DNA of 64,000 nucleotides from Oculina patagonica (taxonomy: Eukaryota): assembly GCF_052425735.1 (NCBI RefSeq), contig NC_135760.1:28883074-28947073 (forward strand), given 5' to 3'. Shown here piece by piece: positions 4,032-63,785 of this stretch; within the stretch, counting starts at the first letter, position 1, and the number at the start of each line of letters is the position of its first letter. The notes below the pieces were generated by a model, which ran no database searches, was not told the DNA's origin, and saw only the letters and a list, made by a program, of their open reading frames with translations. The translations under genes and the position numbers were made by a program.

Positions 4032-4106
4032 TTTCTTGTAGCTCAGATGGTAAGAGCGCCCAACTGATATCTGGGAGGCCATGGGTTTGATTCTTGTCAG
4101 GGACTC
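4032..4106 (+). tRNA. tRNA-like sequence (Ile-GAT-like anticodon loop, degenerate T-arm and acceptor); probably a tRNA-derived SINE head or pseudogene, within PELO intron 1
   Basis: TAGCTCAGATGGTAAGAGCG D-arm and anticodon-like loop CTGATAT, but acceptor and T stems do not pair. Followed by a T-run. Flanked by 65-bp direct repeats (3880-3945 / 4139-4205). Confidence 0.4.
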
Positions 4107-12643: not shown

Positions 12644-12716
12644 GGCTTCAATAGCTCAGTTGGTAGAGCATCGCACCGGTATCGCGGAGGTCACGGGTTT
12701 GAATCCCGTTGAAGCC
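12644..12716 (+). tRNA. tRNA-like sequence with intact acceptor (GGCTTCA/TGAAGCC), D- and T-arms but defective anticodon stem/loop (CCGGTAT, no U33); followed by a T16 Pol III terminator; likely tRNA pseudogene or SINE head, within NUDT6-like intron 5
   Basis: Body is near-identical to tRNA-Lys(TTT) outside the anticodon arm (ATAGCTCAGTTGGTAGAGCATC…GGGTTCAAATCCC). Flanked by 62-bp direct repeats (12478-12540 / 12737-12799). Confidence 0.45.
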
Positions 12717-13064
12717 CTGAATTTTTTTTTTTTTTTCAGGCTTCTTTATTCCAATTGCTTAAATTGGAAATTCACTGCGATGATCATTTATCACTTTCTT
12801 GATACAGTTATCTTGTTTGGCTTGTTGAATAATTAGTTTTCATTACATGACTGAGGCAGTTGAGGGCCATGCCAATAACAGAAGTCAGCCAACCAGAATG
12901 CTTTATTGCAAGTTCAGAAATTTATTTTCTCAATATTGGACCAGCCTAAGTGTTTTCAGCTGATTTTGAACAAAACTGTAAATTCTTTTATAATAAAGTG
13001 ACAAATCTAACGAGCATTCTGATTGGTTGAAGCAGTGTGCTTTATTTATGGTTTAGAGACTGTT

Positions 13065-17903: not shown

Positions 17904-20900
17904 CCCCTAAAATTCCGGTTATAAGCCCTGGGCTAGTACAACTTCGTAAGGGGTTTTGTGTGCGCTTATAAACGGAAAGGCGTATTTCCAGGTGGGCTTA
18001 TAAGCGGAATAAAAAACGTTTCGAAACGAGCCACGGGAGTGTTGATCGAAATACTTTTTTTAGTTAAAAAGTCATAATAAAGCAACATTTAGCCCTGTTC
18101 AGTACTGTCATCCAGCAGAGGGGGGCTTATAATCGGATGTATTTTTTTGTTTCCATAGATGGGCTTATAACCGGAATTTTACGGTATTCTACCATGGTGT
18201 TCTATACTTTACCATCGTCATTGATATCGTTGCCGTCATTATAGAGATGACATCAAAATGTGTTAAGAACAAACGCTGCAGTCCATTCCATCCATGTCTG
18301 TTGGTTAAACGAAAAAATACTCTAAAACTTACTTTACTTCACTGCCTGATGACGTTTGTGATTGTTTTTATTTAGCCGCACGAATTTCAAGCGAGAGAAA
18401 ATCTCGATTCAGGAGCGTTCTTGCAAATGCAGAAGCTTATCGTGTCACGTGACTAAACACGAAGCAATAGCGTGTTTGCGAACTAGTCAGATTTTGTAAT
18501 ATGTGGAAGGAAAATGGTTACAAAATATAAAAAAAAAATGGAAATAAATGAACACTTTTCTTTTCCGCCTCACAATCTAAATCCTTAACTTAACTAAAAA
18601 AAAAAATTCAGGTGAACGATTTGTCACCTGAAATGTCATTAAAGATTTCCAGTTATGTAAAGTCTTCAAGTTCAAATTAGCTAGAAAATGACTGCTTAAT
18701 TAAACATCAGTATTGCTAGCAATTTTATAAGCAAATCTTATTTGTGGTTATGATCATGCTTGTTAGCCTTGAAAACGGAAGCAGTCAAGAAGCTGCGTCA
18801 CAACTTTTTGAGTCATTCCTCCAGGGCTGTGACTTGAAAATAAAGGAAACCTGTACAAGGTTGGAAAACACCAAAGGAGTAATACTAAAACCAAAATAAA
18901 CAAGGCCATAGTTTATACGACTGGCATAGATTAAGCCGTGGATAGGTACAAACAACAAACTCGACGCAAAATCGGCTAACTTAGTTTTTTCAAGTAGTGC
19001 TGTCTGTTGCGTGACCTGTTTCTGATCATTTGTTTACAATTCCTTGCCTTGGTATTTTGCAGAGGTGAATGACCCTGACTAAAGAAACGCCCCAGCAGAA
19101 CTTGAACACCAAAATGGTGAGAGTAAGAAGAAATTGAATATTTTTGAAAAAAGAAACTTGCCGTTGATCGATAATCTAGCAGCTGCTGTGACATCACTGA
19201 AGATTTGGACATTACTTGAAGTAAGACCTGTTGATGTCGATGTTAATATATATTACCTACACGATACTGTTTACTGCTCCGCTAGCGAGATAAAGGAATA
19301 TAACATTAGGGTGGTGGACTGGTACAACTACATTTCCTTTTCGATTTCACAGTTGCCAAGAAAAACATCAGACAAAATTCTGATGAAAGATTTCGATTTT
19401 TAATACTATAATGACGATAAAGGAATTACTGTCATATCCACTGGTAACGAAATGGCGAGAGGAGAGAAGCGTGCTTTAGTTTAGCTTGTTGGCCCGGGGG
19501 GACTCCATCATGTAAGCTATTTAGGTATGTCCGGCCCAAAAGGCTACTGGATTTTGAGCCGTCTTGGTCCGAAATAGACCAATTTGAAAATAGGGTATTG
19601 TTTGTACACGCTGATCAGCATTAGGTATATTTTTAGGTAACTGTTTATTTTTTTTTTTTTTTGGAAGTTTTGTGGGGGTGTGGGGGAGGTTAGATATAAA
19701 ATATAAAAAGGGTAGAAAATATTTTTTTTGGGGGGGGTTGGCTTTTTTTTTTTTTAGTCCAAAGCTGATCTGTTCTTGCCATCTGTTATGAGGTCGGCCA
19801 ATAGAGCTGTGTTTTTTTTTCTTTCTTGTTAAGCGTTGCCAGTTTCCTTCGCCCACTTACAACTCACTGGATGCTGTTTATCAAGCCAGACATTGAAGCA
19901 TTCTCGGAGAAAATGTGCTACCTGAAGGCTCCGTAACGGATTTTAAAACTTGTAGTGTTCACTTGCGTGATTTCTGTCTTATGTACATTGTCTTTTCTTG
20001 CTCTCTTCTTCGAATCCCTTATTTGGGGGAAACCCAATGTACAGAATGTACCTGTGACATAAAACAAAGAGCTTACTGATAGGGCGCGAGTTCGCGCGTG
20101 GTAATACAACGCGTGCGTTGCTCTCTTTACTTTAGCATGTCTTGCGTCTGCATAGGACAAGAAAATGTCAATGTAAAAGCGCAAAGTTTATTTCACATTC
20201 GACTTCTCCCCCCCGGGGGGGGGGGACCACATAATTTCGGGTGGGGAGGGCGGCCCGGCCCCCCCTGACCCTTTAAGACACGAACCCTGACTTCCTACCC
20301 CCGGGGCCCTGTTTAGAGAATGCCATTTTATACCCCGAAGACAAACAAGCCCACGTGTGTGACGTGAAAAGCTAAGATCAAGCCGAAATCAACGTAGCAG
20401 CAAAGGAGTCGCGTTCCCCGCATGCCCCATATAGCACCTGACATGTCCAGCAAAGAACCGGAGAAAGGAAACCCCGTAAGAAAAAAAAGCCGCCAACCCT
20501 ACGGGCCGCACGTCCCCGGCCCTAAAAGGGAGGCCCCCCCCCCCCCCGAGGCGGGGACTTCTCCTCACAGTGTGATCTTAACCTGGTAAATTAAAAGCGG
20601 ATAATTTTATGAAACCAATCATGACTGCAGTTCAGGGTGCTCGCATGCTTGTAAAAAAGTGTCATAAGTTTGGATTCCAGTAAGTTTTGGAACTGACAAA
20701 CTCATAAATGGTAATAAATTACTCAAATGTAAAATGAATTCAGTCTTGTTTCTCAAGCTCTTGAAGCTTCTTGACCTTTGGTAAACTGCGAACGTGCTTT
20801 AAGGCATGGTTACAAGAGACGCTATCCCATCACCCGAGATGCAAAAAAAGTGTTTGCTAATTGTTTTTCACGATCGACCTGTTTACTGAGTAAATAGGCC

Positions 20901-24899: not shown

Positions 24900-25337
24900 G
24901 TAATCCAGTTATATATATCAGGCCAGAATGGACAAAGGAACTAAGTTTGACTGTTTATTGCTGAAAACTTTGAACTTAGGGAATAACAGTTACAGGTCTA
25001 TTTAAACAGTAATCTCCGTTTGGACTGTGTACTGACACTGACAGTTCTTGTTAAGACTTTACTCGGCATTTGTTTATCCCCTTGACATTCACACCAGCTC
25101 ATAAATCGAGCTAAATTCTTCGTAACGCTTTGTGTCTTTGGCCTTGCAGCTCCTTCAAAACAGTCAGTTTTTCCCAGCAGTGGTAACATCCTTAAGAAGA
25201 AAGCCCGATCTACCATTTTATCAGTATTAACTAAACGCCAAACACAGGAAAAGCTATTTCTCGGTGAAAAGACTGATGGACGCGAGCAACAAAACAGCAC
25301 TGTTAGTTCGTTGGAACCAAAATGGTCTTCAGAGGCA

Positions 25338-26328
25338 ATGATAGTCGATCTAGCGTCAACAAAGTCCAAGTCGCAAAGGCCAGGTTCTCAGGTTGAGGAT
25401 AAAAGCCTGAGTTATCATTTCGAAACATCGAATCAAAATTGGACCTCTCCAAATTCAAACGACCAAGTTTCGATAGTGAAATCGAACGAGCAAAATGACG
25501 AATTGTCGTCACGTGTTGTCGATGGTGGGCAAGAGCTTGAAAACTCTCTCGTCGAACAAGCTGGAATGGACATTTTCAAAGAACATACAAAAGGGATTGA
25601 ACATAGCTCTAGACTGCCTCCTCCAACACTGTATCCAGACAGGGATCGGACGGATCAAAGCACCCAGTCACTTGGCAAGCGAAGGGATTTCGCGCCAAGA
25701 CACTTGCCTTGTCCAGCACATGCCACGGAAGTTAGCGATGTTTCACATGCCATGGTGGTGTCCATGTCTCCATCTTACACTTGTGTCAAGGATATCACAC
25801 CAAGCTCGCCCTTGAGTCCAAAGTCCGTGTCTGACTCAGTTAAGGTGTCTATACCTTTCCAAGTTCATGGTCAACAGCAGTCGCCCAGACCAGAGCACCA
25901 ATCACATGTTTGGTCGTCATCTGTTTCCGTATGTGTGCCATTTCAAGTGACTGAAGACGGTGCGTGTGTCTCAGTTTTACCTTCTTTTGACAACCAGCTT
26001 CCGTCGACTTCTTTACTCGCCAAGCAAACAACAGAACAAGTGGCGCGCGCAGATTCAGTTCCCTTTCTTCAAGAACCGCTAAACACACTAAATTCCAATT
26101 CCGTGAGCGAGACTGAATCACCCACAGTGGATCGGATCACGGAAAACGCTCATTCTTCCGCTACGAATAAAATGTCATCTTTGGAGCCTTTACTTCCGAT
26201 GAAAAGTTCTTCGTTCTTGTCTCCGGATGATGGCAAAGGTGTCTCTCAAGATACGACTGATGGAGGACCCACTACCAAGCTTCGTTCCAATTCTACTCCT
26301 ACAACTGATAAACGAAAGCATTTCAAAG
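25338..26328 (+). CDS. Serine-rich N-terminal exon of a large coiled-coil protein (cytospin/SPECC1-like architecture); first in-frame ATG at 25338; donor AAAG|GTAGGT
   Basis: Long open frame 25197-26384 in the six-frame track. Low-complexity S/T/P-rich composition. Donor at 26329. Start is either ATG 25338 or splicing from 24860-24899. Confidence 0.55.
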
Positions 26329-27242
26329 GTAGGTATTGTGTCTTCTTGTATATCTGTTGTTGTGTATATTTATCTTTGTTTTAAAATTATACAAACCAGT
26401 TTGATTTTTATTAATAATATGGAGAACAAAAATAAAACCGGTTTAACTAAAATTTTAACCAAAGATAAATTTAAACAACATACCGAGCGAAAGAATAAAT
26501 AACAGCAAACAAGAACTACTTGCGCATCGTTTATGTGCAGTCAGTGGATAAAAGGACCCGACAGTTGAACGCAGACTGAACACGTCAGCTGCGCCGCTGT
26601 ACTCAATTGTGTTTAATATGCAGGTATTAATTTTGCAATTTTAGTCAGTTCACGCAAGTTCTCCTTCTTGTTTTTACTTTGTCACACGGATATTTTAGAA
26701 TCTGTCCAGACTAATCTATGTTATGAAGGACGGCTAAATTCATCAAAAAAATATTTAAAGCCATAATTGCGATTGTTTTTGGCTTTGCCCTTCCAAGTTC
26801 ACAAGTTTTTTTTAAAATAATTATGTAATTTATACATGATACGCGCTGAAACCTCTTTTAGATAATTGCGTGTTATATTTTAATGACGTTATGACTCTAA
26901 AATCAGTCGACCGCGATGTCAAAGAAAAATATATTTGAATAGCGATTATCTTTAATCGTGCTCACGCATTGTGCATTTATGAGATGTCGCGAATAATCGA
27001 GAGACTCGACGAATGCTTGTAAGTGTTCAACAGACATAAAGAAGGAAAGGATTAGAGGCTGCGCCGGCAATATCGCGTGACAGATCGGCCCATGATAAAA
27101 ATGTCAAAGGAAATATGTTCACCGCTTAACATACACGTACAGAAGAATTTGTTGCGACCCACTGCAGAAAACACTCTCAGACGGTGTATTGCTGGTCAAT
27201 GGATCTAAAATGTGCCTATACAATTTTGCTATCACTCCACAG

Positions 27243-29958: not shown

Positions 29959-30266
29959 GTACGCATGAATAAATAAATAAAAAAAACAAGCAATAGGCCA
30001 TTCCGAGTTACCCTTTGCCTCTGTTTCAAAACGAGTCTACGTGCGAAACCATTCAAATGAAAATGAGTTTGATTTGCATGAAAATGGACCTGTAGGCGAA
30101 ACTCATTTTCATATGACTTGTTTCGCACGTAGACTCGTTTTGAAACAGAGGCAGAGGGTAACTCGGTAATGACCTATTGCAGACAAACAATTGCAGACAT
30201 CTCACATTTTCTTAAGGGAAAGCAAACCTTGGTCAAGCTCAGTACGCGTTTTGTTATTGTTAACAG

Positions 30267-32408
30267 GGAAAGCAAAGCCTGACTTAGAAGCAATAAAAAG
30301 TAAAGTTAAAGACCTTGAGGGCGAAAATCGTGAACTGAAGGAGAAAATACAAGGCATGGAACATCGACTGGCCGTTGTACCACTCTTGGAAAAGGAAAAA
30401 CTTCATTTACAAAAGCAGTTCAATGAACTTGTCCAGGAAAACGAGAGAAAGTCAGCTGAATTGCAATCTTTAAATTTGGAATCGGAAAAGCAAAGGGAAG
30501 AAAAAAATGAACTCCAGATTAAACACGAGGGATTGATGATAGCCATGGGAAACAGCAGAAAAGAACTTGAAGAGCTCAAAAACCAAAACCACTCACTCGA
30601 GGAATCGAAATCTACTCTGGTGCGAGAAAACGAAGAAAAAATTCAATCAATTTCAAAATACCTCGAGGACATTGAAAACTTGACAACTTCGAATACGGTG
30701 TTGGTAGTGCAAGAGAGTCGATCAAGGAGTACTATTTCAACACTATTACAAGGCTTGCAATCGTTAAAAGATTCTGTTGTAAAGTTAAAAGACGAAAACA
30801 AATGTTTACAATCGCAGATTATTGAAAACGGAAGTAAACTCGTTGGGAGAATGAGAAACTGTGTCAATGGTTTGGAAAGAGTTATTGATGGTTTGGAAAA
30901 AGAAAAAACTTGCAAAGTTGAGAAAGAAACACAAGTATCCAACAACATGGAGACGCTTGACAAAGAAACGCAGTGCGATGAGTTATGGTCAGTACACTTA
31001 GAGGAGCTTGAAGAAAGCAAACACTCATTGGAGCTTTTAAAAAGAAGAATAGATGAACTTGAAAACCCGAAAGAAACAAATGAATTGTCCGCCACGCCAG
31101 ACTTAGCGAATGAACTAGATAAGCCTGAACAATGTTTGGGATGCGCCAGCCTTGAAGAGCAATTAATATCTTTAAAATCCAATTTGGAAACGTTTAAGTC
31201 TTCTTTGCAGAAATCAGAAAGCGATCGAGATGAAGCTGTCGAGGAAAGGAACGAGTTGAGACGCGAAGCAAAGTATCTCAAGTATGTCCTTTCTTACCGG
31301 GAAGATGTGCAGTGTTTACAAATGTCAAAACAACAGACCAAAGAGCTGGAGAAAATGGAGACTAACCTTGTAGAAGCAGAGAAAAAAGTAATCGATTTGG
31401 AAGGAGAAGTTGGAAGACTTCATGAAGAAAAGCAAACTCTATTGCTGAGCATTTTAAATCTTCATTCTGGCCACGAAGTGGAAGATGTCAAAGAGGAAGA
31501 CGAAGAAGAAGAAAATATGGCGAGCGAAGAGTCTGAAAATAACGATGAAAATCAAGATAAAGGAGACATGAGTGAAGATTCTCGCACTCCCGACTCCATT
31601 TCTCGCAGAGAACAACTCAAATTTCGATTTCAGTTATCTTTGTCCGAGTCGGAGTACAGTTATAGCTCAGAACAACGAACGGAAGGCGAAGAAGAAAGCG
31701 AGAGTGAAGAAGAAGAGATGGAGAAAGAGATCACCGCCCAAGCTGGAGTGCATATAAAGAAAATTAAAACTGAGAACAAACAGCTTAAAACACGATTGAA
31801 TGAAGCAACTGAAGAGAAAGAGGAGTTGTTATCAAGTCTTGATACGTTGTGCGAAGATTTCGATTCGCTCAAGGCAAACTTTGATAAACTTGAAGAAGAG
31901 CACGCTGTGTTGTCAAAGAGATCCAAGCACGATAAAGAAACCTTGCTTGCCCGGCTTACGGAGGTTGAAATCGATAGAGAAAATATGAGGGATTCCCTTA
32001 GGCAAGTTCAAGACGAGAAGCTAGCGCTTTTGAATTGTCTTGAGATGAGAAACCCTGAACCGATGGCACCACTATCTCCACTGACACAGCTAGATCTTGA
32101 CAAAATCATTGCGCGTGCCCAGTCGTTCACACGAGAGGAAAACAAATCGAATGAACCAACATCGAACGAGGAAGAATCTGAAGCTTCGTCGTCATCAGAT
32201 GCCGAAGATGAGCAGAAAAACAAACTCCAGTCTAATGAGAAGGCCGTGCTACAAACAACTCCAAACAATCGCGTCGGGCTGGAGAGTCAAACAGAAGTGA
32301 CGCCATCTGCTGCTGAGGATAGAGACCTCGCAATTATAGTGGCATCTATTGAAAACGACCTTGGAAAACTCAAAGAACGCCTAAATAAAAGAGGCGGTGA
32401 TGCGTCTG
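30267..32408 (+). CDS. Giant coiled-coil exon (~714 aa; heptad-rich, E/K/L-rich, acidic Ser/Glu clusters)
   Basis: 750-aa ORF in the track. Acceptor ttgttattgttaacag|GG and donor CTG|GTAAGT at 32409. Phase 1 exit matches the 37452 acceptor exactly (G+AC=D). Confidence 0.8.
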
Positions 32409-33107
32409 GTAAGTCATCTACAACGCACGAACTTTTAAGGTAGACTGTGAAAACTTCCTCTGTTGACTGAAGCTTTTTTGGGATATCTGAGAATCTAAAT
32501 CTGAAAGAAGACAAAACTAATTAACAATTAGACTACGAGCCCAAGTTTCTATGAGCAAATAGTCGAGGCGCAGCCGAGTTGACTATCGCTCATAGAAAAC
32601 GAGGGCAGTATCTTTGTTTTAGTAGAAACTCTAAAGGATTGCAGTCCAAACCTACAATATTGTGACTGAAGACAAAAATCAAGAAAATTACCGCTTAAAG
32701 AGCACGCGAGCGCGGACTGTTTTCATCGGCGAGAAATCAGTGGGAGAACCAATCAGATTCGCGGATTTCCATTAGAACACAGCTGAGTTTCTACTAATTG
32801 GCGATAGAGTCGCTTTTCACAGTCTGCTGTTAAGTTGTTGTTATTGTTATTAATTAGTAATTAACAAATCGACCACATTTTTTCATGGTCTACTTAACAA
32901 TTAGACTACGAGTCCAAGTTTTCTATGAGCGAATAGTCAACGAGGCGCAGAAACTCTTAAAGGATTGCAGTCCAAAAATGAAGAAATTTTAATATTCAAA
33001 TGAGCAACGAGCGCGCGATCGTTTTCTATTTTAACAATAGAGTGTTACTGTCGAGGAACTATCGGCTGATAGTTGCCCCGCGGAAATTTGATGTTCTTAG
33101 TATACGT

Positions 33108-37451: not shown

Positions 37452-38311
37452 ACGATGTGCAAGATGACAACACTGGAACAGGCGTTGAATCCAGGCTCCG
37501 GAAACCTCCTCCCGGCGAGCGTATTCTCAAGCGACAAGCGTCGACTGTTAAATCGAATCTGGATCGAATATGTAGAGAGAAACAACATCTGGAAGATGAA
37601 GTAGAATCGCTGCGCCGATACCTACTCAAAAGAAGAGACTCTGCAATGGAAGTCAGGAAGAGACGGTCCCATGGGAGTCTCAACAGGGCGGCGTCGGAAG
37701 TGGAGAATCACTTGGAAGGAATCAAGACCTTACAAGCCTTGCTCGGAAAATCCGACGAACAACTCCGAAAGTCGAATGAAATAATTTCTCGACTCGAAGC
37801 AGTCAACGATGACACTGAAGAGAAACTTCGAGATTCTGAACTTCTTAAAGTTGACATGCGCCGCGCTGTTCAGATAGCAAACAACTTCGCCATGGAGGAG
37901 CAAGAGAAAGCAGAAAAGTTAATGTTACAGAATGAAGAGTTGATGAAAACGATTGAGATGCTTAAAGGTACGCATGGCAAGGAAAAGCCAACAGCGAAAG
38001 GAAAATCTAAATTTCAGTTGACAGAAGCGAAAGGTTTCAATCGCAGTGTAAGCGAAGACGACGGATTATACGCCGATGACGAGAGTACTTTCACAACGGA
38101 AGGTGAATCGGATTTCTATTCTTCCCGCCACTCGAGTATCGCAAGTGAATCCGATTTTGTCACAAGCCCCACATCTTATGAAGACAAACTCGACAGCTTG
38201 ATTGTACCATCAGAAAGTACAACTAAGAATGGAGATACCGAGACTGAAGGTACGAGCCAACACAGTTCTACAGCCGACACATCAGATGTGACTGACGATG
38301 AACTGGAATAA
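37452..38311 (+). CDS. Terminal coding exon of the coiled-coil gene (…LLKVDMRRAVQIANNFAMEEQEKAEKLMLQNEELMKTIEMLKG… acidic S/T/D tail, stop TAA 38309-38311)
   Basis: Acceptor ttttaatcgtag|AC. The 'AVQIAN…E.QE' motif resembles the cytospin/SPECC1 region 'DLQTAVVIANDIKSEAQEE'. No calponin-homology domain is encoded before the stop. Confidence 0.7.
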
Positions 38312-45928: not shown

Positions 45929-47323
45929 CTGGCATGACAGTGACTGTCAACATAAGTTTGAATGACAGGTGCCATTCACATTTGTGCCTGTGTGTGAATC
46001 ATTTATTATTACACTTGTGCTTTCAATGTTAGGTTCAAGCAGAGAGGGAGGGGGAGGGTACTGTAACTTGTGACCAGTCTCCTGGGCACGCTATTGGCAC
46101 GCGAACAACATATTAAAAAAATATATTTGTCCCGGACAGGCTTTCTCGAGCTTTTTATTGTCATGCCACATGAGCTACATATTGATAAAATATAAATCAA
46201 ATGTTGCAATGTTGAAAAAAATAAAACTAGGGTCAATTCAATAAAACATTTACACGTGTAATTTACAAGTGTAGCTTTTGTTTTCGACCTCTAAAACAAT
46301 AGCTCAACTTGCAAATTACACTTGTAAGTGTTTTATTGAATTGACCCCCGGATACAACAGCTATAGGAATAATCAACTTCTTACAGTAATAAAGTTCATC
46401 TCAATTACAAACTATTGCTAAATTACATTTGAAGGCTAACGCCCACATTTGTAAATATTTTAAATGCACGACCCCACCAGGCTTGCTGAAAATACATTGT
46501 GTTGAAATAAAGATGTTCATTCATATTTATTTTTGGCAACGTGATCTACCTAATTTGTTGTACAGGGCCGGGTTGTTCAAAAGACGATTAACCTAATCAA
46601 GGATTACCGTGAATTTTGATCAATTCGAGTTGTTTTTAATTTTCAGTAAGGTTTTCTGTTTATATTTTCTGTCCTCCCTTTACATTGACTAATCTCAAAC
46701 GCCACAAAACACAAGCTTCAAACAACTAGGCCAAGAGAGGTTATCATAACCACTGATTTTTTTTTTTTTGAAAAGTTGGTGGTCAGCTTTCTCTGGCTTT
46801 CTCGTGTTTACTAATTAACTAAGAAATATAAAAAACGCTTGTAGTGCGTATTGATCTTCGAGGCAGTTACATTTTGACACTCAGTGGAATGTGCTGCCAG
46901 ACTCTATCCGGACGAGGAGTTTAAGAGGAACATTCAGGGCATTTCCTTTGTTAAGATGCTTTTTGCTTTTATATGCATTTTTCGCTATGTATTTGTAAAT
47001 ACTAGTTTCTTCTGAGTGTAACGTATTTTTGTAACCTATTCTATTGTATTCTTGAAGATATTAGCTACTGATATTAACAATATTAGCTTTAAGCTACTCT
47101 AAAATTCGAGAGAAAATACAGTTTCTGTTATGTTATAACAGTGTGCTGCATTTATTTATAATTGCCTCATACACTAGCTAAGTATTTCGAAATACTGTCT
47201 AGTTCAGCTATTGAATGTTTTAAAGTCTAATATAAAATACTTGACAACATCACCATTTGTAAAACTTCTCTATGATTTGTAAGCAAGTAAAACAGGACAT
47301 GTTAAAATTTTTATTTGCAATAT

Positions 47324-47460
47324 TTATAGTGAAGATTTCATTCGACTGGAACTTTGAAACCTGGACAGCCTGAAAGGCAGCACATCATAGAGCACCTTCT
47401 CACCAAGAGCCATCTGTGACAGGATCTTGCCGACAACAGGCGCCATTTTAAATCCATGAC
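47324..47460 (-). CDS. PIPOX: PIPOX-like terminal exon (G)[44 protein letters not shown]
   Basis: Acceptor tatttgtcag|GT. Matches '[35 protein letters not shown]'. Ends -SSL, a PTS1-like variant of the -AHL/-SKL C-terminus. Confidence 0.85.
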
Positions 47461-47990: not shown

Positions 47991-48066
47991 CTGAAAACCC
48001 AGCACCAATTATAATATTCTGGAATTCAGGGTGTCTATCCAGCACAAACAAGTGATCAGGAGTAAC
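47991..48066 (-). CDS. PIPOX: PIPOX-like exon 8 [25 protein letters not shown](G)
   Basis: Acceptor ttgtaatag|GTT and donor TCAG|GTACGA. Matches '[26 protein letters not shown]'. Confidence 0.8.
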
Positions 48067-48878: not shown

Positions 48879-49037
48879 CGAATAGATACAGGTCTCTACA
48901 ATACTTGGTTCTGGTTTTACGCCAGGAAAGTGAGTTTTAATGACTTTAGCCGTTATTTCGATGTTAACATCACTCTGTTCTGTTGGAGCATCCCTGCAGT
49001 CAGGATCAGGTATCTCTACACCCCTATGAGGACAAAC
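48879..49037 (-). CDS. PIPOX: PIPOX-like exon 7 VCPHRGVEIPDPDCRDAPTEQSDVNIEITAKVIKTHFPGVKPEPSIVETCIYS
   Basis: Acceptor ttctgtag|GTT and donor TTCG|GTAAGT. Collinear with '[53 protein letters not shown]'. Confidence 0.8.
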
Positions 49038-49374: not shown

Positions 49375-49527
49375 CTTTATAAGGCCAGGATATTCAAACA
49401 CAGGAAATCCATAAACATGCATGTCTCTTATTCCAAAGGGAGTACAGAATATGAAGCCAGGAAATTTCTCAGAAGAGTACAAGTGAGGCTCAGTTACTGG
49501 CCAGTAACAAACACTCATTCGCTGTAA
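49375..49527 (-). CDS. PIPOX: PIPOX-like exon 6 LQRMSVCYWPVTEPHLYSSEKFPGFIFCTPFGIRDMHVYGFPVFEYPGLIK
   Basis: Acceptor ttgatttccag|TTA and donor AAAG|GTAAAC. Matches '[49 protein letters not shown]'. Confidence 0.8.
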
Positions 49528-50579: not shown

Positions 50580-50632
50580 ACTAAGTGGTATTGTAACCCC
50601 AAGAGGCTTCAGAACTCTGTTTGCCCAAGCAC
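50580..50632 (-). CDS. PIPOX: PIPOX-like exon 5 (G)AWANRVLKPLGVTIPLS
   Basis: Acceptor tctgcag|GT and donor TTAGT|GTAGGT (chosen for phase; an alternative GTAG|GTTTAT donor 4 nt downstream would break the frame). Matches 'PWTNQLLRPLGIEMPLQ'. Confidence 0.7.
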
Positions 50633-52246: not shown

Positions 52247-52376
52247 CCACAGTTATGACTACACTTTTTGCTTTGTAAGAGCTCTTGGTTGTTTGTATTT
52301 TGACAACAGAACCAGGTTGAATATCTAGTACTTTCTCACCGTCATGCAAAATTCCACCAAATTCCACAAATTGTTG
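52247..52376 (-). CDS. PIPOX: PIPOX-like exon 4 QQFVEFGGILHDGEKVLDIQPGSVVKIQTTKSSYKAKSVVITV(G)
   Basis: Acceptor ttacaatttag|CAA and donor GTGG|GTAAGC. Matches '[44 protein letters not shown]'. Confidence 0.8.
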
Positions 52377-52890
52377 CTAAATTGTAAGAGAAAGAAATAC
52401 GGAATATCAACAGAAACCAATAAAAACCAATACCAGCACAAAGCATGTGTCTAAATTATTGCATAAGACCTAGATGAGATGAGTTATACAAGTATTCGGG
52501 GGGGGGGGGGGTGGCATGGTTTTGCTTCGCATTGACAGATACATTATTCGGTTCGTGAAATAATTGTTTTTAAAACAACTACCATTGATGTGCCATGAAA
52601 AAAACAAAGGTATCATGTTACAGCATATGCAAGAAAAGCAAAAGTATCTTATTACAAATGAACAAAAGTATTGTGTTACGGTTTTTAAAGGTGTTAGGAA
52701 CCCCCAGGACCGAATGCTGTCGGTGTCTCAACATCTAACTAAAAGTGAAGTAAAGCTGAAAAAGCATCATTCCTTTAATTGATCGGATAATCTTCCTCAG
52801 ATAGAAGGCCACCCAAAACCCAGAGTTCAATATGGAGTGTACACATGACTAGATTTCATACTGTATAACACAACAACATGCATGACTCAC

Positions 52891-53104
52891 CTGCAGTGTT
52901 TTAACGGCAAGACCTGCTTGGATAAGTCCACTAGAAGGCTCAAGTGCCCCATATTGATCTGATGATACAGTTAATCCTGGAAATCGCTTGTTAATCTCAT
53001 CTGCTGTAAGCTGTACACACTCTTGTCCTACATGTCGCACATTGGTTATTACCTTTGATACATCAGCAAAGGGCGGATCATCTATTGTCAATAAACCACA
53101 TTTC
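52891..53104 (-). CDS. PIPOX: PIPOX-like exon 3 (R)KCGLLTIDDPPFADVSKVITNVRHVGQECVQLTADEINKRFPGLTVSSDQYGALEPSSGLIQAGLAVKTLQ
   Basis: Acceptor ttttgaacag|G and donor CTGCAG|GTGAGT. Collinear with PIPOX '[45 protein letters not shown]…YAYKALRALQ'. Confidence 0.8.
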
Positions 53105-53482
53105 CTGTTCAAAACAAAAAAGGTTCAACTTTCATGTAATAGTTTTTACAGTATGCTACATAAAATCATAAGGAAACTATAGAAGATGGTTATTATAATT
53201 GTTAAGTTCTCTATTCAAGAGTCTTTATTCAACTTATGTACAATGGGTTATTCCAGAAAAAATACACACACCCCCAATGGATGGCAAGAGTTTTTGACCT
53301 CCCCCCCTTCTGACTGGATTTCCCAGACTGCTAGTACCCCCCTCCTTCCCAGATTTCCAAGCTCAAGGACCCCCCCCCCCCCAACCCGGAACTGGAACAG
53401 GCAATAGAAAGGACGTAACAATTCATCCAAAAGTGTTTTTTTGGAAAGAACAAAACAAACTCCAAACGAAAATCAAACAAAC

Positions 53483-53632
53483 CTGATAAGGGCTCTCCCA
53501 GATTTTTTTTTCAATTTCATCCCACATCTGAAATGCCTCTGGCATCAATGCAGCATGAAATGCTTCTGGATAACCATAGCGCACTAGCCTGCTATGACCA
53601 TGTGAACTGCCACGTGAATGGGGAAGTGGAAA
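53483..53632 (-). CDS. PIPOX: PIPOX-like exon 2 FPLPHSRGSSHGHSRLVRYGYPEAFHAALMPEAFQMWDEIEKK…; contains an A9 run (T9 on + at 53503-53511) with an apparent +1 frameshift
   Basis: Acceptor ttttatcag|TTT and donor TATCAG|GTTTGT. With nine A residues the exon exits in phase 0 (…IWESPYQ) and is out of phase with exon 3. With eight it reads …EIEKKSGRALIR|KCGLL, matching PIPOX 'EAGTQLHRQTGLL'. Confidence 0.75.
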
Positions 53633-55141: not shown

Positions 55142-55255
55142 CTGCTCCAAAAGAAGAGTCTTTTTCCCTCTTGAAGCGAGGTATCGAGCTGTCGAGCTTC
55201 CCTCCACACCAGCACCTACAACACATACGTCGAATAACTCTCCAGAAGCCGCCAT
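55142..55255 (-). CDS. PIPOX: PIPOX/sarcosine-oxidase-like FAD oxidoreductase exon 1 MAASGELFDVCVVGAGVEGSSTARYLASRGKKTLLLEQ
   Basis: GxGxxG FAD-binding fold. 38 aa exactly as in human PIPOX exon 1 ([38 protein letters not shown]). Donor CAG|GTATTA. Confidence 0.85.
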
Positions 55256-57084
55256 GTTGGCTCTAAAGAAACTGACCCTCGAGACCTCAACCGGCTGCTC
55301 GGTCAGCGGTGTGTCGCCCGAATTCTGGTAGGTACGTGGTGTATGGTCCTGAGTCCTGTCCTCTCGGTTCTCTGTCGGTTACAGTAGGGATACGGTAGTC
55401 GATACTGTAGGGATACGAGGCCGTGGATGGCTAAAAAAACTTTTTCCATTGCCCGTTTGCAAAATAATACAAGTTCGGCTGGTATTACTTTCTTTTTTAC
55501 TGTTTCTCTACAAAAGCGGTTAGGTCCGGACCAATTTTTTGACGGGTCCTTTTTTCTCTATCGTGTAAACGCACCTGTTTAATAAACGAGCAAGAGTGAT
55601 TAAAACATGAAGCGCAGTCAAGTGTTTTAGACTTGATAAATCACGATTAGTACAGCAGCTTGGTCCAAAAAAATTAGGCAAATTGTGCATTTTTACCTAA
55701 AATTATGAAACTGTGAAGCCACTGAGACCTAGCACCTCAGATTTGACCCATGACGTCACTAAAATGTCAATAACGTCACACCGTGAGAAATGTCTAGTAA
55801 AGCTTAAAATTTCTTACTGAAACGCTTAAGAGGAAAACTCGGCGTCTATTTGGTCGTATTAAAAAGCTTTCAATCATTTCATAAACTGCAAAGGAACATG
55901 GCTTAGTGCATTACCTAATAGATAGACTGGGACCTTTGACCTTGGTGACCATTTAATGTCAAATGGTTTGTTAACCTTACTAAAATGTTCGGAAAAATCT
56001 ATATTGTCGTAAAAGTTTGCAAGCACCTCATAAACTACTAAAACACACAACTAAATTGATTTTTGACTGCAGAAGAACAAAGCAGTACGCTTTGAGCTTA
56101 TTTGATGAGCCTCTACATTTGACCTTGGTCAGTGACCTTAAAATGTTAAAGAGAATAATAAGCCTTTCCGCTGGCTGTTTAAAATGATTTCGTGGCATAA
56201 CAAAAGCAGATCGTAGGCTGTTCCGAAAACGCGGAGTGCGGAGTGCGGAGTCCGAAAATGCGGAGTCTGTAAAAAAAAAAAAAAAAATGAGAATGCCTGC
56301 ATTGCCAGCTTTATGTACAATTTACCATTTCTGTGCACTAAGTGGAAGGGATAATGTATGAAGTGGATATTTCCTGTTTCTTTCTTATCAGTAGCATGTT
56401 TAACTTGCGACAATTGATTGTTGTTGACAAGAAACAGTTAGCCGCGTTAAACGGTTGCGTTTTTTACTTAAGACATTTCTATCTCCAGACAATAAGTTGC
56501 CGTTATTGTTTTGTCTTTTTGTTCATAGTTAGGGAATTTTCCATGCACTATGTATGGAAACACACGAGAATGAAAGCGTTTTTTGTGTAAACAACGAACC
56601 GAGACAGTGTACATCTAACCCGTATCAAAATATACAATGTTACTTTTCAGCAACAGATGTGTCATTTGTAGTGAAAAGCAAAAGCTATTGCAAGCTTGAC
56701 ATAACCATTACCAGTTATCACGATTGTCCTTGACACAGACGTGTTTCCATGACACCTGAAATAAACGGTTCCCAGGTTCCGAGTTCCCAGCGAAAAGAAC
56801 TTACAATCAAAAGAATTAGTATTCTTGCACTGAAAACATGATTTCAACCAAAAATGACATGTCCACAGATGGATGTAGATATCCACGGCACAAAGGCGGT
56901 TAAATGATTTTTGGGGAAATTTTTATTCCTCGCGAAGCGAGGCCGAAGGCCGAGCGTAGCGGGGTGTATAATTTTGTCCCTCAAAGGGCTCAGGCGGGAT
57001 GAAATCTCGTGTGGAGTTTACGGTCATGTATATATATATATATATTTGTGAGCTTGGTGTCTGGCGGAAATGACGTCACACGGC

Positions 57085-57172
57085 CGCCGCGCGCTGGTGG
57101 CCTAATGGTAAGGCGTCGAACTTGAAATCAGATCTTCGGGACTGAGGGCGCGGGTACGAATCCGGCTAGGGT
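57085..57172 (+). pseudogene. tRNA-Ser(TGA)-like pseudogene inside the left arm of the large inverted repeat
   Basis: GTGGCCTAATGGTAAGGCGTCGAACTTGAAATC closely resembles the tRNA-Ser D-arm and anticodon loop (CTTGAAA), but the anticodon stem and T-stem are broken. Followed by T13. Two further GGTTCGAATCC T-arm-like modules with T-runs follow at ~57205 and ~57330. Confidence 0.45.
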
Positions 57173-58922
57173 TTTTTTTTTTTTTCCTTATTTTTTTTGT
57201 GGGTTCGAATCCTGAGCCTTTCATTTTTATCGTTTTTCTTTTCGGATTAAAATAACACTGATTTCCACATAATACTCCCTCAACGCCTATTCAGGCTATA
57301 AACCTTTCATCGCCATCAGGGGCGCGCGGGCGGAGGGTTCGAATCCTCCTGCCGTTCGTTCTTCTTTTTTTTTTTAATGCCCTCAAATAAATGTCCAAAC
57401 TGCGACTATCCAATAATTTGTCGATGATTTTGAAAATAGCCTGCGCTTCCCAACGCTTTTTCCTCTTTACGAACCTGAAAGAGCCGCCATCTTCAAAGCG
57501 GAGTAGACCCTGGGAACGAGGGTGTCGCGGCCATGCCCGTTACTAATTTTTAACAAATATATCTTCCTGCCTACTGTGGAAAATTGAATATGTACAATGT
57601 TCAACTTCAAATAATCCACTCCTTATTTATAACACCACCCCCCCCCCCCCCGCCTCCCCAACCCAGAGCTTCGCGAGGCCCTGCGAGTCACGTATTACTA
57701 GTTTATTTATTTTTTGCTTTTTTATTAAGTGCTGCGGAGTAGCGTATCGTTGTTGTACATTTTTCTTTAATTTGAACTTCGTCTAGCATAAAAGGCGGAG
57801 TTGAAAAGTGCCACGTTGCTGATGGTTCTTTTAGAGAGTTTACTGTGTATTCGTGGAAAGCCAGGCGAAGCAACATGGCTTTAGGCTCTTTGGTAAAAAA
57901 GAAACTAAAGTTATTTGAAGTTTACGAGTAGTGATTCCAAAAAATTGGAAATACTGTTTGTTAATATTTCGTGAAACGTGAACTGCAGTCATTTTTGAAG
58001 AAAGAAATGGCCGCGGTCTGAACGATCCGCTTCACTGCTTCGGGCGAAGCTGTACAAAAATGGGATCAATTTAGGTTTCTGGGAAACTGCTCACCTACCC
58101 CTCCCCAAACCTAACATTTTGCCCAAAGCGATAAGTAAGGGTTAATGTTAGGTTTGGGGAGGGGTAGGTGAGCAGTTTCCCAGAAACCTAAATTGATCCC
58201 AAAAATGTGTATTATTTTTTTTAATATTTAGTTTAATATTTATATATTTTTCATTTTATTTTAATTTTTTTATCACACTTTTTTTATTTTATTTTATTTT
58301 ATTTTATTTATTTTTTTTTTTTACAGACTCCGCATTTTCGGACTCCGCACTCCGCACTCCGCGTTTTCGGAACAGCCCAGATCGTACAGTATACTAGTAA
58401 TACGTGACTCGCAGGGCCTCGCGAAGCTCTGGGTTGGGGAGGGGGGGGGGGGGGTGTTATAAATAAGGAGTGGATTATTTGAAGTTGAACATTAATTGAA
58501 TTGTACATATTCAATTTTCCACAGTAGGCAGGAAGATATATTTGTTAGAAATTTTATTTCAACGGGCCCGCGACACCCTCGTTCCCAGGGTCTACTCCGC
58601 TTTAAAGATGGTGGCTTTTTCTGGTTCGTAAAGAGGTAGAAAGCGTTGGGAAGCGCAGGCTATTTTCAAAATCATCGACAAATTATTGGATAGTCGCATT
58701 TTGGACATTTATTTGATGGCATAAAAAAAAAGAAGAACGAACGGCAGGAGGATTCGAACCCTCCGCCCGCGCGCCGCTGATGGCGATGAAAGGTTTATAG
58801 CCTGAATAGGCGTTTAGGGAGTATTATGTGGAAATCAATGTTATTTTAATCCGAAAAGAAAAACGATAAAAATGAAAGGCTCAGAATTCGAACCCACAAA
58901 AAAAAAGAAAAAAAAAAAAAAC

Positions 58923-59010
58923 CCTAGCCGGATTCGAACCCCCGACCTCAGGTCCGAAGATCTGATTTCAAGTTCGACGCCTTACCATTAGGCCACCAGC
59001 GCGCGGCGGC
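58923..59010 (-). pseudogene. tRNA-Ser(TGA)-like pseudogene, mirror copy in the right arm of the inverted repeat
   Basis: Reverse complement of the 57085-57172 unit with a few substitutions (GGGGGTTCGAATCC versus GCGGGTACGAATCC). Confidence 0.45.
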
Positions 59011-62000
59011 CGTGTGACGTCATTTCCGCCACACACCAAGCTCACAAATATATATAGAAATATATATGACCGTAAACTCCACACGAGATTTCATCCCGCC
59101 TGATCCCTTTAAGGGACAAAATTATACACCCCGCTACGCTCGGCCTTCGGCCTCGCTTCGCGAGGAAAAATATACACTACACACTGAACTGTGTTTTACG
59201 CTATTCCAAACAGTCGTGGACTTCTTGAGTAACAACAAGACTGTATCATTGATATTACTTGGCATCACTGCGATGGCTTCAAATGAATTGCTAGCTTATA
59301 GGAAACACAGTCATGAATTCCACAAGTCTTCTTACCACTTACCAATGAATGAAAAGAGGGTGTCGGGTGGGCATAAACGACAGGTACATCTACAGATCAA
59401 TGGAGTCACAGAGTTAATTTAGAAGAATTTACTAGCAAAGTAAAGGGTGTGGACAGGCGACTTCTTACGAGACCCTAGCAGTATTTCCTCTGTGTTGACG
59501 AAAGTAAAACGGAATTCTTCAGTTTTCTGTTCCAGCGAATTACAAGAATTCTATTTCATACTCGTCAATAGAAAGGAACCACTTCCAGTCTTCAGGAATC
59601 TCTGTTGTGAGCGTGTCATGGGTGACTTGTTTCATATAGTAAATTAATAAAGATGGTAAATTTTAAGCTCGGTAATAAATAATGAAGATGAAGTATTCAA
59701 CACTTTGCTAGGGGCTAAAAATTTCTACGCTCGTGGGTGAACAAAACGACCCATATCTGCTCTTTCGTGTAAGTTCGTAAGTTCAACTTCAATTTTCAAT
59801 CACTGTTCGTAAGAAATAGAGTTTCTGTCCCAAATATATATTAAACAAGGTATAATTAAACAAGGTATAAAGTTGAGGAAAGAATAGTTTTGTCAAATTA
59901 TCAAGAAAAAAAACGGTTTGATAGTTTAATTGAAAGACAGGGGCTTAAAGCTGCTCAGAATCACGGAATCACGTCTTAGAGGTTTCAACTTAGGAATGAA
60001 CGTTTATTCGTTTGTCTCACGATAGAATCGCTTTGAGATGGTTTCAACTTTTTCAAAATTTTCTGGGGGGCATACCCCCAAACACCCCTAGGGGCATGGA
60101 GCCTGCAGCTCATAAACTACAGCCTCGTGGCCATTTGGACTCCCACTTTGTAAAATTCTGCCTATAAGCCTGATACCCTCGGGCTTAAACAAGATAGTAA
60201 ACAAAAATATTTGTAAACAGCCACCCCCCTTTAAAATATCCTGGATATGCCCCTGAGAGTTTTTTATCAACTACCCGTCGAGTTGTCATTTGTTTCCTCA
60301 AGTTGAGTTCTTACAACTGTTTGGAATGAAGACATGTAAAACAGATGCCCATTTCCTCGCAATGTAGATTCTGGAAAAGGGTTAAGGATAACAGATGTAG
60401 TAATGTAACTAATGTACATGAGCACACTGTTGATACAGACGTCACTGTTGGCCATTGCTATATTTGGGAATATAATCACAATAAATTGTAGGAGGCTTTT
60501 GAGAGAAGAGCAAATTTAAAGTACATTCCTGTACACCAGATTGGTAAATTGAGTGAGCTACAGATGTACTTGTCTTTCATGTACAGTCAGGGAACGATAT
60601 TGTCTCTGCATTTAGTGTTTGGCAGTTCGGGAGTAATAAAAAGGTTCGGTTAATAGAACACATGGCTGAGATTTCCGGAAGTCACCAATGCATTTCACGA
60701 CACTCGATTTTCAATTGAGTGTCCTAAAAGCAAAACCAAAGTTTTTACTCTGGTCAATCACAAAGGACACAAACAATTTAGTCAATCGGAAGACGAAGCA
60801 AAACTGACAAGAAGCGTAGGAAAACCTGAAAACATGATCGTTTGAGTTTTACTTCTGATTGATCAAGAAAGAGACGCGAGTTTTTTTTTAATCAATCATC
60901 ACGCGTAGAAATGCAAAACCAAAGTAAACTTGAATTACTTACGACATTCAAATAAAAACCGCTGTAACGTTACAGTCCTGTTGTCACTGAAGAACTGTGG
61001 TGCTACTCTCTAAGCGCATTAACACGAGTCCATATCCTCAGCTTCCCGACCCCTCCAACAACTGGGGCTCAAAACAAAGCAATGGAGGGTGTAAAGCACC
61101 GTGCTCTGCCTTCGTAGAAGCTTCAGTTTTTCCTCTGACTTATATTTAAAGCTGCAAGAAGGGTTCCCGGAAAGGGTTGCACAGGACGATGCAAGTGTGT
61201 AAAAACATGTCGAGAGGTAATGTAAATAAATCATAAACGAGGCTGCAGCCTATTAGGTGGGAAATAAAGAAATAATAGATTTGGGTTTCGATGCCTGCTG
61301 AAATGCAAAATGGGAATTTAATTTATTTCAGTCTCACTCACAGTTTTGACATTGGCTCCAGACCTCTCGCTCTCGTTCGAAGACCGAGCGCGTTCGCAAA
61401 AGATACGACTGTATCTCTGCAGTCTACCCGTCTCACTTCAACAACCAGTTTCATTCTTCGACCTCATGCGATCAAGAGGGAAAATATTTTAATTTTTCCT
61501 GTCTACAATCCTTAAAAATAATGCGTAATTCTCATCCCACGAAAACAAGAGTTTCATTTTTGATTTACAATTGGGAATTTTTAATTCCCCATTCCCAAAC
61601 AACAACAGCAAAACAAGAACAAGCAAATTAGAAAAATTCAAACATCAGCCCTAAAAGAGGTCGCATTCACCTACGAGAGGTAGTCGCTGAGATGTTCCGA
61701 CTATTGTGTGGTATTTTGGAAAGTGGTCGCAAACAGGAGGAGGGTCGCACAGGGAACGTTTTACGGTGATGTAAGGGCCCCATAAAAGCCAAAATGAAAA
61801 ACAAAAAAAACACGATTTCGTGTCCAAGTTTGCAGATCGAATAGAAGACAGAAGTCTGCGATTTCATAAAAAAAAAAATGATTAGTCAGAGTGTGTTGTG
61901 ACAGAAAAGGTTTTTTTTTTTCAAAATTTGTCGATGTCAGCCGTTATACGTCGGCTTACGCGTTAATTAAATGCATTACGATGAACCCGGCTTTGGTTTC

Positions 62001-62057
62001 CCTTGCAACCTAAATGAAATTCATTGCGAAGTAGTTTTGAGGAAAACGCCCAGAGGG

Positions 62058-62487
62058 GGGGGGGGGGGTTCTACGGCTTGTAAATGACGGGGATGATCGA
62101 ATTGAGGCAAAACTCAGTACCCAAAAAAATCTCTAAGTCTTCCGACATTACTCAAAAAAAAATCCCTGGACCAAAAATAGCCCCCCCCCCCCCCAAAAAA
62201 AAATCCCTTGTCAAATTACCCCTAAATTGCCAGGAGGGGCAATAATATAACACAAAGACAATCATAAAAAAATGAACGCTCGTGTTTTTTTAATTCATCA
62301 TACCATAAATACACTAAGGCCAAGGCACTTTAGTTCGTTTTTAATACCCAAAAAATATCCCCTATTTAAATCAAGTCACCCCAAAAAATATTTGCCAAAT
62401 TTTCCAACCCAAAAAATCCCGAAATCGAACATTTCAAACCCCAAAAAATCCTTTGATCATCCCTGTCATTTACAAGCCGGAGTACAC
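62058..62487. mobile_element. MITE-like element with TIR GGCTTGTAAATGACGGRGATGATC and an internal ~35-50-bp periodic CCCAAAAAATCC minisatellite
   Basis: 62066-62090 is the reverse complement of 62452-62478. At least seven spaced copies of the CCC(A)6-9TCC motif lie between. Confidence 0.5.
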
Positions 62488-62848: not shown

Positions 62849-63062
62849 CTAGCTTTTTAACCACTGATGAAATTGAAGGACATCCTTGCTTCTCTCTCCA
62901 TAGTCATATAGAAGCTCTTCTCCAGCTTTCACGTCCCTGACAGTTTCCAGTATCAAGTAAGGTTTGTCCTTTATAGACATTAGCTTCGTTGCACAGTTTG
63001 CATCAGTTCTGCTGTGATTCAAAAGCCGGCCAAGCCTGTCACTCTCTTTTGTAGCATCAACA
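62849..63062 (-). CDS. KMT5A: KMT5A-like terminal exon (C)VDATKESDRLGRLLNHSRTDANCATKLMSIKDKPYLILETVRDVKAGEELLYDYGERSKDVLQFHQWLKS*
   Basis: Acceptor caattcatag|T; the shared Cys codon is completed across the intron (tg+t). Near-identical to the SETD8 C-terminus '…RLINHSKCGNCQTKLHDIDGVPHLILIASRDIAAGEELLYDYGDRSKASIEAHPWLKH'. Confidence 0.9.
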
Positions 63063-63785
63063 CTATGAATTGAAGGGAAAAAGCCGGTCAAGAGCTCCTC
63101 CCAAAACCGAGGTACTAAATTCAATTATCGAGATTCTATTTTTGTATTAATAGACTAAGGATAAAGCATGACGTTTATTTTTCCCGCGAACGGCAAAAAA
63201 ATCAACTTCTACCGTCTGCCGTTCGTACGCGGAATTGAGTAGTTTTGTGTTTGTCACGAATGGGATTTCCCCCCTTTTTTATGAGGTATTAATTTTATAA
63301 TTTGATAAAAAGGTAACAAAATGAAAGGCAAGCTCGCGTTTATCGTTTGCCGTATAACGTAAAGCTTTATCTCTCTATTCTAAAGAAACTTAAAACTCGA
63401 ATACTGGCCTTTTTATGCTTGTCAGTGACAACGTCAAAGTAATAGTTTATCTTTTTACATGTCATTTTGTCGCATATCTATGTCAAAGGCCGGATAATTC
63501 CTGAGTTTTAATGGGTTTACAGGCAATGGTATATGAGCTCATATACCATAGACCACAGATATGGTAGCCGATACGCGTTAACGAGAACAGCCGGGGAGAT
63601 CAATTATTGCAATTCTTTGGGCGTTTTTAATAAAACAATTATTCCACTCGCGCTTGTTGGAAATGAGATAGTTATAGCCAACGACGCACTACGCGCGTCG
63701 TTGGCTATCTGCCGTCTCATTTTCAACGCGCGCTCATGGAATAATTGTTAAATGATCTTTTTGGAATACGAGTAGATGCACTCAC

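Follow-up and report, generated by a model that had tools for sequence, protein, structure and literature searches.

The analysed window, a stretch of 64,000 nucleotides from the coral Oculina patagonica (RefSeq assembly GCF_052425735.1, contig NC_135760.1, positions 28,883,074 to 28,947,073 of the forward strand), carries on its minus strand a nine-exon gene extending from 55255 to 47324. From its sequence, this gene is predicted to be the O. patagonica orthologue of the gene encoding peroxisomal sarcosine/L-pipecolate oxidase (PIPOX), an enzyme of the MSOX family. As assembled, its reading frame is interrupted by a single base in excess, located in a run of nine A residues within exon 2 (T9 on the plus strand at 53503-53511). 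The analysis shows how the gene is built, where the extra base lies and that the rest of the gene is intact; the origin of this base is addressed below.

Structure of the PIPOX-like gene

The gene was located by a tblastn search in which human PIPOX served merely as a lead and which gave nine collinear blocks from 55255 to 47351 on the minus strand, and the flanks of these blocks were then read for exon ends. The resulting model was built independently from the window sequence, and all 16 of its splice dinucleotides are canonical AG/GT.

Exon 1 (55142-55255, 114 nt) starts with an ATG at 55255-55253, encodes MAASGELFDVCVVGAGVEGSS..LLLEQ, including a GxGxxG dinucleotide-binding motif, and ends in phase 0 before the donor GTATTA. 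Exon 2 (53483-53632) follows an acceptor reading ..TTTTATCAG and precedes the donor GTTTGT; it measures 150 nt as assembled and 149 nt in orthologues. Besides the A9 run (53503-53511), it harbours an internal ATG (53518-53520) in the frame that prevails after the shift. Exon 3 (52891-53104, 214 nt) begins with a G that completes an AG-G codon (Arg), continues with KCGLLTIDD..., and needs two bases from exon 2. It is followed by exon 4 (52247-52376, 130 nt), exon 5 (50580-50632, 53 nt, with the donor GTAGGT), exon 6 (49375-49527, 153 nt), exon 7 (48879-49037, 159 nt), exon 8 (47991-48066, 76 nt) and exon 9 (47324-47460, 137 nt). Exon 7 encodes ..IVETCIYS, which includes a cysteine considered below, and exon 9 encodes the C-terminus ..MKSSL and ends with a TAA stop codon at 47326-47324. 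On the same strand, an AATAAA hexamer at 47310-47315, 9 nt past the stop codon, is a candidate polyadenylation signal.

Other features of the window

About 1.7 kb upstream of the start codon of the PIPOX-like gene lies an inverted repeat (56923-57705 and 58390-59170), whose arms of about 780 nt are separated by about 680 nt and enclose, mid-repeat, a perfect 58-nt hairpin (58061-58118 and 58144-58201). The arms are about 95% alike, differing by 26 substitutions and 10 mixed indels, and the whole probably represents a transposon or foldback element. The differences between the arms were considered as a gauge of assembly noise and rejected for this use, the repeat being old and the differences mixed.

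On the plus strand, a 750-aa open exon rich in Glu and Lys (30191-32443) has a coiled-coil-like composition and no match in Pfam; it is 68-75% identical to single ORFs found on ENA, Logan and JGI contigs, presumably from other corals. Further long plus-strand ORFs lie at 25311-26384 and 37457-38311, and the exon probably belongs to a single large unnamed gene that extends over about 25-38 kb of the window. At the other end, a minus-strand exon (62849-63124) codes for a SET domain (PF00856, E=1.3e-10), of which it holds the C-terminal half, and presumably resembles methyltransferases of the KMT5A/SETD8 type. Lastly, Rfam detects two tRNA-like sequences on the plus strand, Ile(GAT) at 4032-4106 (38 bits) and Thr(GGT) at 12644-12717 (48 bits). 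G34 anticodons for Ile and Thr are unusual in eukaryotic nuclear genomes, and these sequences may therefore be tRNA-derived repeats or pseudo-tRNAs.

A one-base excess in the A run of exon 2

The first-pass annotation of this stretch, made from the sequence alone, had reported an exon sum of 1186 nt, i.e. one base more than a multiple of three, and this total (stop codon included) was reproduced by the independent nine-exon model. It had also stated that the only phase conflict lies at the junction between exons 2 and 3, which is borne out: all the rest of the gene is in frame, and no other stop or indel was found in it. With exon 2 ending in phase 0, as in the assembled sequence, translation continues into exon 3 as EMWFIDNR and meets a stop eight codons into this exon, which leaves a product of 96 aa (EIEKKIWESPYQEMWFIDNR, then stop). 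After removal of one A from the run (A8), the junction reads EIEKKSGRALIR followed by KCGLL and the frame is open for 394 aa. The earlier claim that eight A residues restore a junction matching PIPOX thus holds, the motif EAGTQLHRQTGLL quoted in its support being indeed found in a human PIPOX sequence (P0062).

The length of exon 2 was compared with that of its orthologues by threading annotated proteins from four species onto their own genomic loci with an exact-match spliced search. The exons measure 114/149/214/130/53/153/159/76/137 nt in Orbicella faveolata, 111/149/214/130/53/150/162/76/137 nt in Montipora foliosa, 111/149/214/130/53/159/159/76/131 nt in Nematostella vectensis and 114/149/214/183/153/159/76/131 nt in Bos taurus. 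Exon 2 is thus 149 nt long in all four species and is followed by an intron at the same position and in the same phase. The eight other exons of the window gene have the same lengths as those of Orbicella, and Montipora and Nematostella display the same pattern with small in-frame differences.

At the nucleotide level, the alignment of exon 2 and its flanks with Orbicella DNA contains only one gap, of 1 nt, which falls in the A run; before the donor GTTTGT, the window has GAAATTGAAAAAAAAATCTGGGAGAGCCCTTATCAG and Orbicella has GAAATTG-AAAAAAAGGCTGGGAGAGCCCTTATCAG. An independent Orbicella contig gives the same picture. The alignment with Montipora DNA also includes a single 1-nt gap within exon 2, which BLAST places about 10 nt upstream of the run, a position that is ambiguous at 83% identity. 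Therefore, the constant length of exon 2 in four other species and the single gap at the run locate the excess to the A run of exon 2, where the first-pass annotation had put it. The run itself varies in length among corals: Orbicella reads GAA AAA AAG GCT GGG (A7) and Montipora has A6, these orthologues being in frame with an exon 2 of 149 nt. With eight A residues, the window would read GAA AAA AAA TCT GGG (E K K S G), and A8 (GAA AAA AAA TCT) is the functional state to be expected in the Oculina lineage from these comparisons.

The A9 run is the longest homopolymer among the coding stretches examined in the window, and these stretches contain no other coding homopolymer of at least 8 nt that could be used to calibrate the error rate of the assembly.

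Identity of the protein and selection on the gene

A search with the protein translated from the A8 reading retrieved 3493 homologues, and almost all of those named by their source are called peroxisomal sarcosine oxidase. This protein matches the whole of the Pfam domain PF01266 (DAO, FAD-dependent amine oxidases; positions 1-353 of 353) with 170.3 bits for a cut-off of 27.9. The uncorrected sequence splits this match, the 96-aa product covering positions 1-77 and a downstream 319-aa product positions 78-353. Neither of them would be expected to be a working enzyme, because the first carries no more than the beginning of the Rossmann fold and the second lacks that beginning.

The family features are all found in the A8 protein. 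The GxGxxG motif of exon 1 reads VVGAGVEGSS, with G14, A15, G16 and G19 invariant in the alignment of homologues, and the HSRGSSHG motif is likewise unchanged across the aligned homologues. The counterpart of Cys315 of MSOX (in AVCMYTKTLD), the site of the covalent 8-alpha-S-cysteinyl FAD, is C321 in ETCIYSVTPD, which is invariant among seven homologues. The C-terminal tripeptide -SSL differs from the canonical PTS1 tripeptide, (S/A/C)(K/R/H)(L/M).

Besides the window gene, O. patagonica carries two paralogous PIPOX-like genes, P0015 (ACROYT_G010474) and P0021, which encode proteins of 399 aa sharing 46-47% identity with the window protein and are probably located on the same chromosome. This species has at least three PIPOX-like genes.

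The dN/dS ratio calculated against Orbicella is 0.29 overall, 0.18 upstream of the run and 0.32 downstream of it. Depending on which of five outgroups is used, 13-26 lineage-specific amino-acid changes are counted in Oculina and 16-20 in Orbicella. These comparisons indicate that the gene has evolved under purifying selection with no acceleration in the Oculina lineage.

Existing annotation

The frameshift is already known, since the RefSeq pipeline has flagged it and independently made the same one-base correction. Indeed, the RefSeq entry XP_078363290.1 from O. patagonica ("LOW QUALITY PROTEIN: peroxisomal sarcosine oxidase-like", 394 aa) corresponds to the window gene minus one base and is identical to the protein of the A8 model. 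NCBI uses the prefix "LOW QUALITY PROTEIN" for Gnomon models whose CDS was made to depart from the genomic sequence in order to bridge an indel or a stop. This correction is driven by homology and is no proof that the genomic base is wrong. The GenBank submitter model, KAL9982142.1 ("hypothetical protein ACROYT_G010951"), which is the best near-identical match to the A8 protein, is the 319-aa product mentioned above; it begins with MKLKKKSGRALIRK at the internal ATG (53520-53518), lacks the FAD-binding N-terminus and shares a 90% cluster with XP_078363290.1.

Origin of the extra base

The first-pass annotation had proposed either a homopolymer-length error of the assembly or a very recent pseudogene; both alternatives stand, whereas an old pseudogene is ruled out and a compensating splice is very improbable. 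Among the readings considered, a consensus or assembly error at the homopolymer is the best explanation, and we infer, with some confidence, that the extra A is an artefact rather than an allele and that the gene works. Exon 2 would then measure 149 nt in the animal and carry an A8 run (GAA AAA AAA TCT), the reference would have gained its extra A through a homopolymer-length miscall during consensus calling or polishing, and the gene would encode a FAD oxidase of 394 aa. Long homopolymers are sites where consensus errors concentrate. Rough mutation-selection reasoning suggests that a consensus slip at a 9-nt run of a long-read assembly is likelier than a null allele on the assembled haplotype.

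Sequences bearing on the length of the run were sought in several collections. An exact look-up of the corrected (P0121) and shortened (P0003) proteins in the assembly/Logan gene index found neither of them recorded. A search with the peptide spanning the junction of exons 2 and 3 gave 12 matches, none from Oculina and all from other corals, with 54-92% identity; the exon 2 ORFs among them are all in the A8-type frame (..IRF..). JGI metagenome contigs, scanned for the DNA pattern with 8-11 bases permitted at the run, yielded no Oculina sequence; the single match is an Orbicella-type genomic contig with A7. An Illumina run from O. patagonica, SRR28110921, is named in a mitogenome paper (PMC12856378).

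The lengths of other homopolymers in the window also bear on the quality of the consensus. The window includes eight G/C runs of at least 13 nt, mostly with unrelated flanks: six of exactly 14 nt (20534-20547, 52498-52511, 57638-57651, 58441-58454, 62055-62068 and 62181-62194), two of 13 nt (1209-1221 and 53370-53382) and none longer, whereas A/T runs reach 29 nt. Under any geometric distribution of lengths, such a pile-up at 14 nt has a binomial bound of p<=0.004, which rises to 0.013 when the two repeat copies are treated as one. It resembles a ceiling of technical origin on poly-G length, which suggests that some homopolymers in this assembly were not sized faithfully. This ceiling is a circumstantial pointer to an artefact; it concerns long G runs and has no direct bearing on the choice between A8 and A9.

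The main rival reading, which is less probable, is that A9 is real and arose by slippage in an A8 run as a one-base insertion, either very recent or segregating to this day and perhaps heterozygous, so that the assembled haplotype carries a null allele. Translation would end after 96 aa and the mRNA would probably be directed to nonsense-mediated decay. The sequence as given does read A9, 8-nt mononucleotide runs are hotspots of mutation, and the paralogues P0015 and P0021 could buffer the loss. A young null allele would also look like this, with one lesion in a gene that is perfect elsewhere, but this picture fits an artefact equally well: as a lesion of zero age and a very young one predict the same picture, the intactness of the gene is consistent with both. 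The purifying selection on the gene, the lack of acceleration in Oculina and an orthologue that is intact in every coral and anemone sampled speak against a null allele, as does the reasoning on error and mutation given above. An old unitary pseudogene was rejected, as the gene has only one lesion, canonical splice sites, a dN/dS of 0.29 and no excess of Oculina-specific changes.

It is very improbable that A9 is real and that the gene is expressed with its frame restored in some molecules, either because RNA polymerase slips and yields A8 transcripts or because ribosomes shift by +1 on GAA AAA AAA ATC. Runs of at least 9 A are sites of RNA polymerase slippage, poly(A) tracks perturb the ribosome frame, and the ORF downstream of the run is fully intact. 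However, programmed sites are conserved and this run is not, the orthologues being in frame with A7 in Orbicella or A6 in Montipora, and little of the product would be recovered through slippage at A9. The bolder version, according to which A9 is genuine and fixed in O. patagonica and a functional oxidase is made through Pol II slippage or a +1 ribosomal shift, is hardly credible; if true, it would mean that recoding at a homopolymer of recent origin sustains a eukaryotic nuclear metabolic gene.

Hardly any probability attaches either to a real A9 compensated by an alternative donor or acceptor that keeps the frame and yields a variant protein, an outcome that the first-pass annotation had named as a refutation of the error call. 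An enumeration of GT/GC donors and AG acceptors around the end of exon 2 and the start of exon 3 did give 39 stop-free in-frame pairs, but all 39 delete or replace conserved residues (for example by dropping WDEIEKKSGRALIR or KCGLLTIDDPPFADVSK, or by keeping the out-of-frame IWESPYQ), none retains the conserved SGRALIRKCGLL segment, each uses at least one weak non-consensus site (the donors GTGGGA, GTTTTG or GC, or internal acceptors without a pyrimidine tract), and the canonical sites are conserved in four other species; all the enumerated pairs were accordingly rejected.

Implications

The case matters little beyond annotation hygiene, as it is a routine single-base homopolymer discrepancy in a well-conserved metabolic gene. 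In the case of an artefact, the reference needs homopolymer polishing, KAL9982142.1 is wrong and the RefSeq protein of 394 aa should be used instead. If the extra A is real, it defines one null allele of one of three PIPOX-like genes in a coral, a finding of slight interest to population genetics and with no obvious connection to the questions for which O. patagonica is studied.

Comparison with PIPOX genes and MSOX

The closest comparison is with Orbicella faveolata, whose protein (XP_020620475.1) is 82% identical to the A8 protein, including across the junction between exons 2 and 3. With the mammalian PIPOX of Bos taurus and human, identity is 45-46% over the full length. The GxGxxG and HSRGSSHG motifs and the flavinylation cysteine are common to the window protein and its PIPOX homologues. 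In contrast, the C-terminus is -SSL (-KSSL) in the window protein and other cnidarian homologues and -AHL (-KAHL) in mammals. What sets the assembled Oculina sequence apart from the PIPOX orthologues is the additional A of exon 2 and the frame disruption that it causes.

The first-pass annotation had described nine exons collinear with vertebrate PIPOX and conserved in phase. Collinearity of all nine exons holds with the cnidarian orthologues. Of the eight introns of the window gene, seven share their position and phase with those of cattle. The cattle gene, however, has eight exons instead of nine: cnidarian exons 4 and 5 (130 and 53 nt) correspond to a single exon of 183 nt, and the cnidarian gene has one intron more.

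MSOX from Bacillus (PDB 1EL5, 1L9E and 3M0O) is a bacterial enzyme encoded without introns and a family relative of the window gene rather than an orthologue. Residues 8-384 of the A8 protein align with residues 4-378 of MSOX (E ~2e-60), and this alignment includes the covalent-FAD cysteine and runs unbroken through the junction between exons 2 and 3, where WDEIEKKSGRALIRKCGLL in the window protein faces WYELEKETHHKIFTKTGVL in MSOX.
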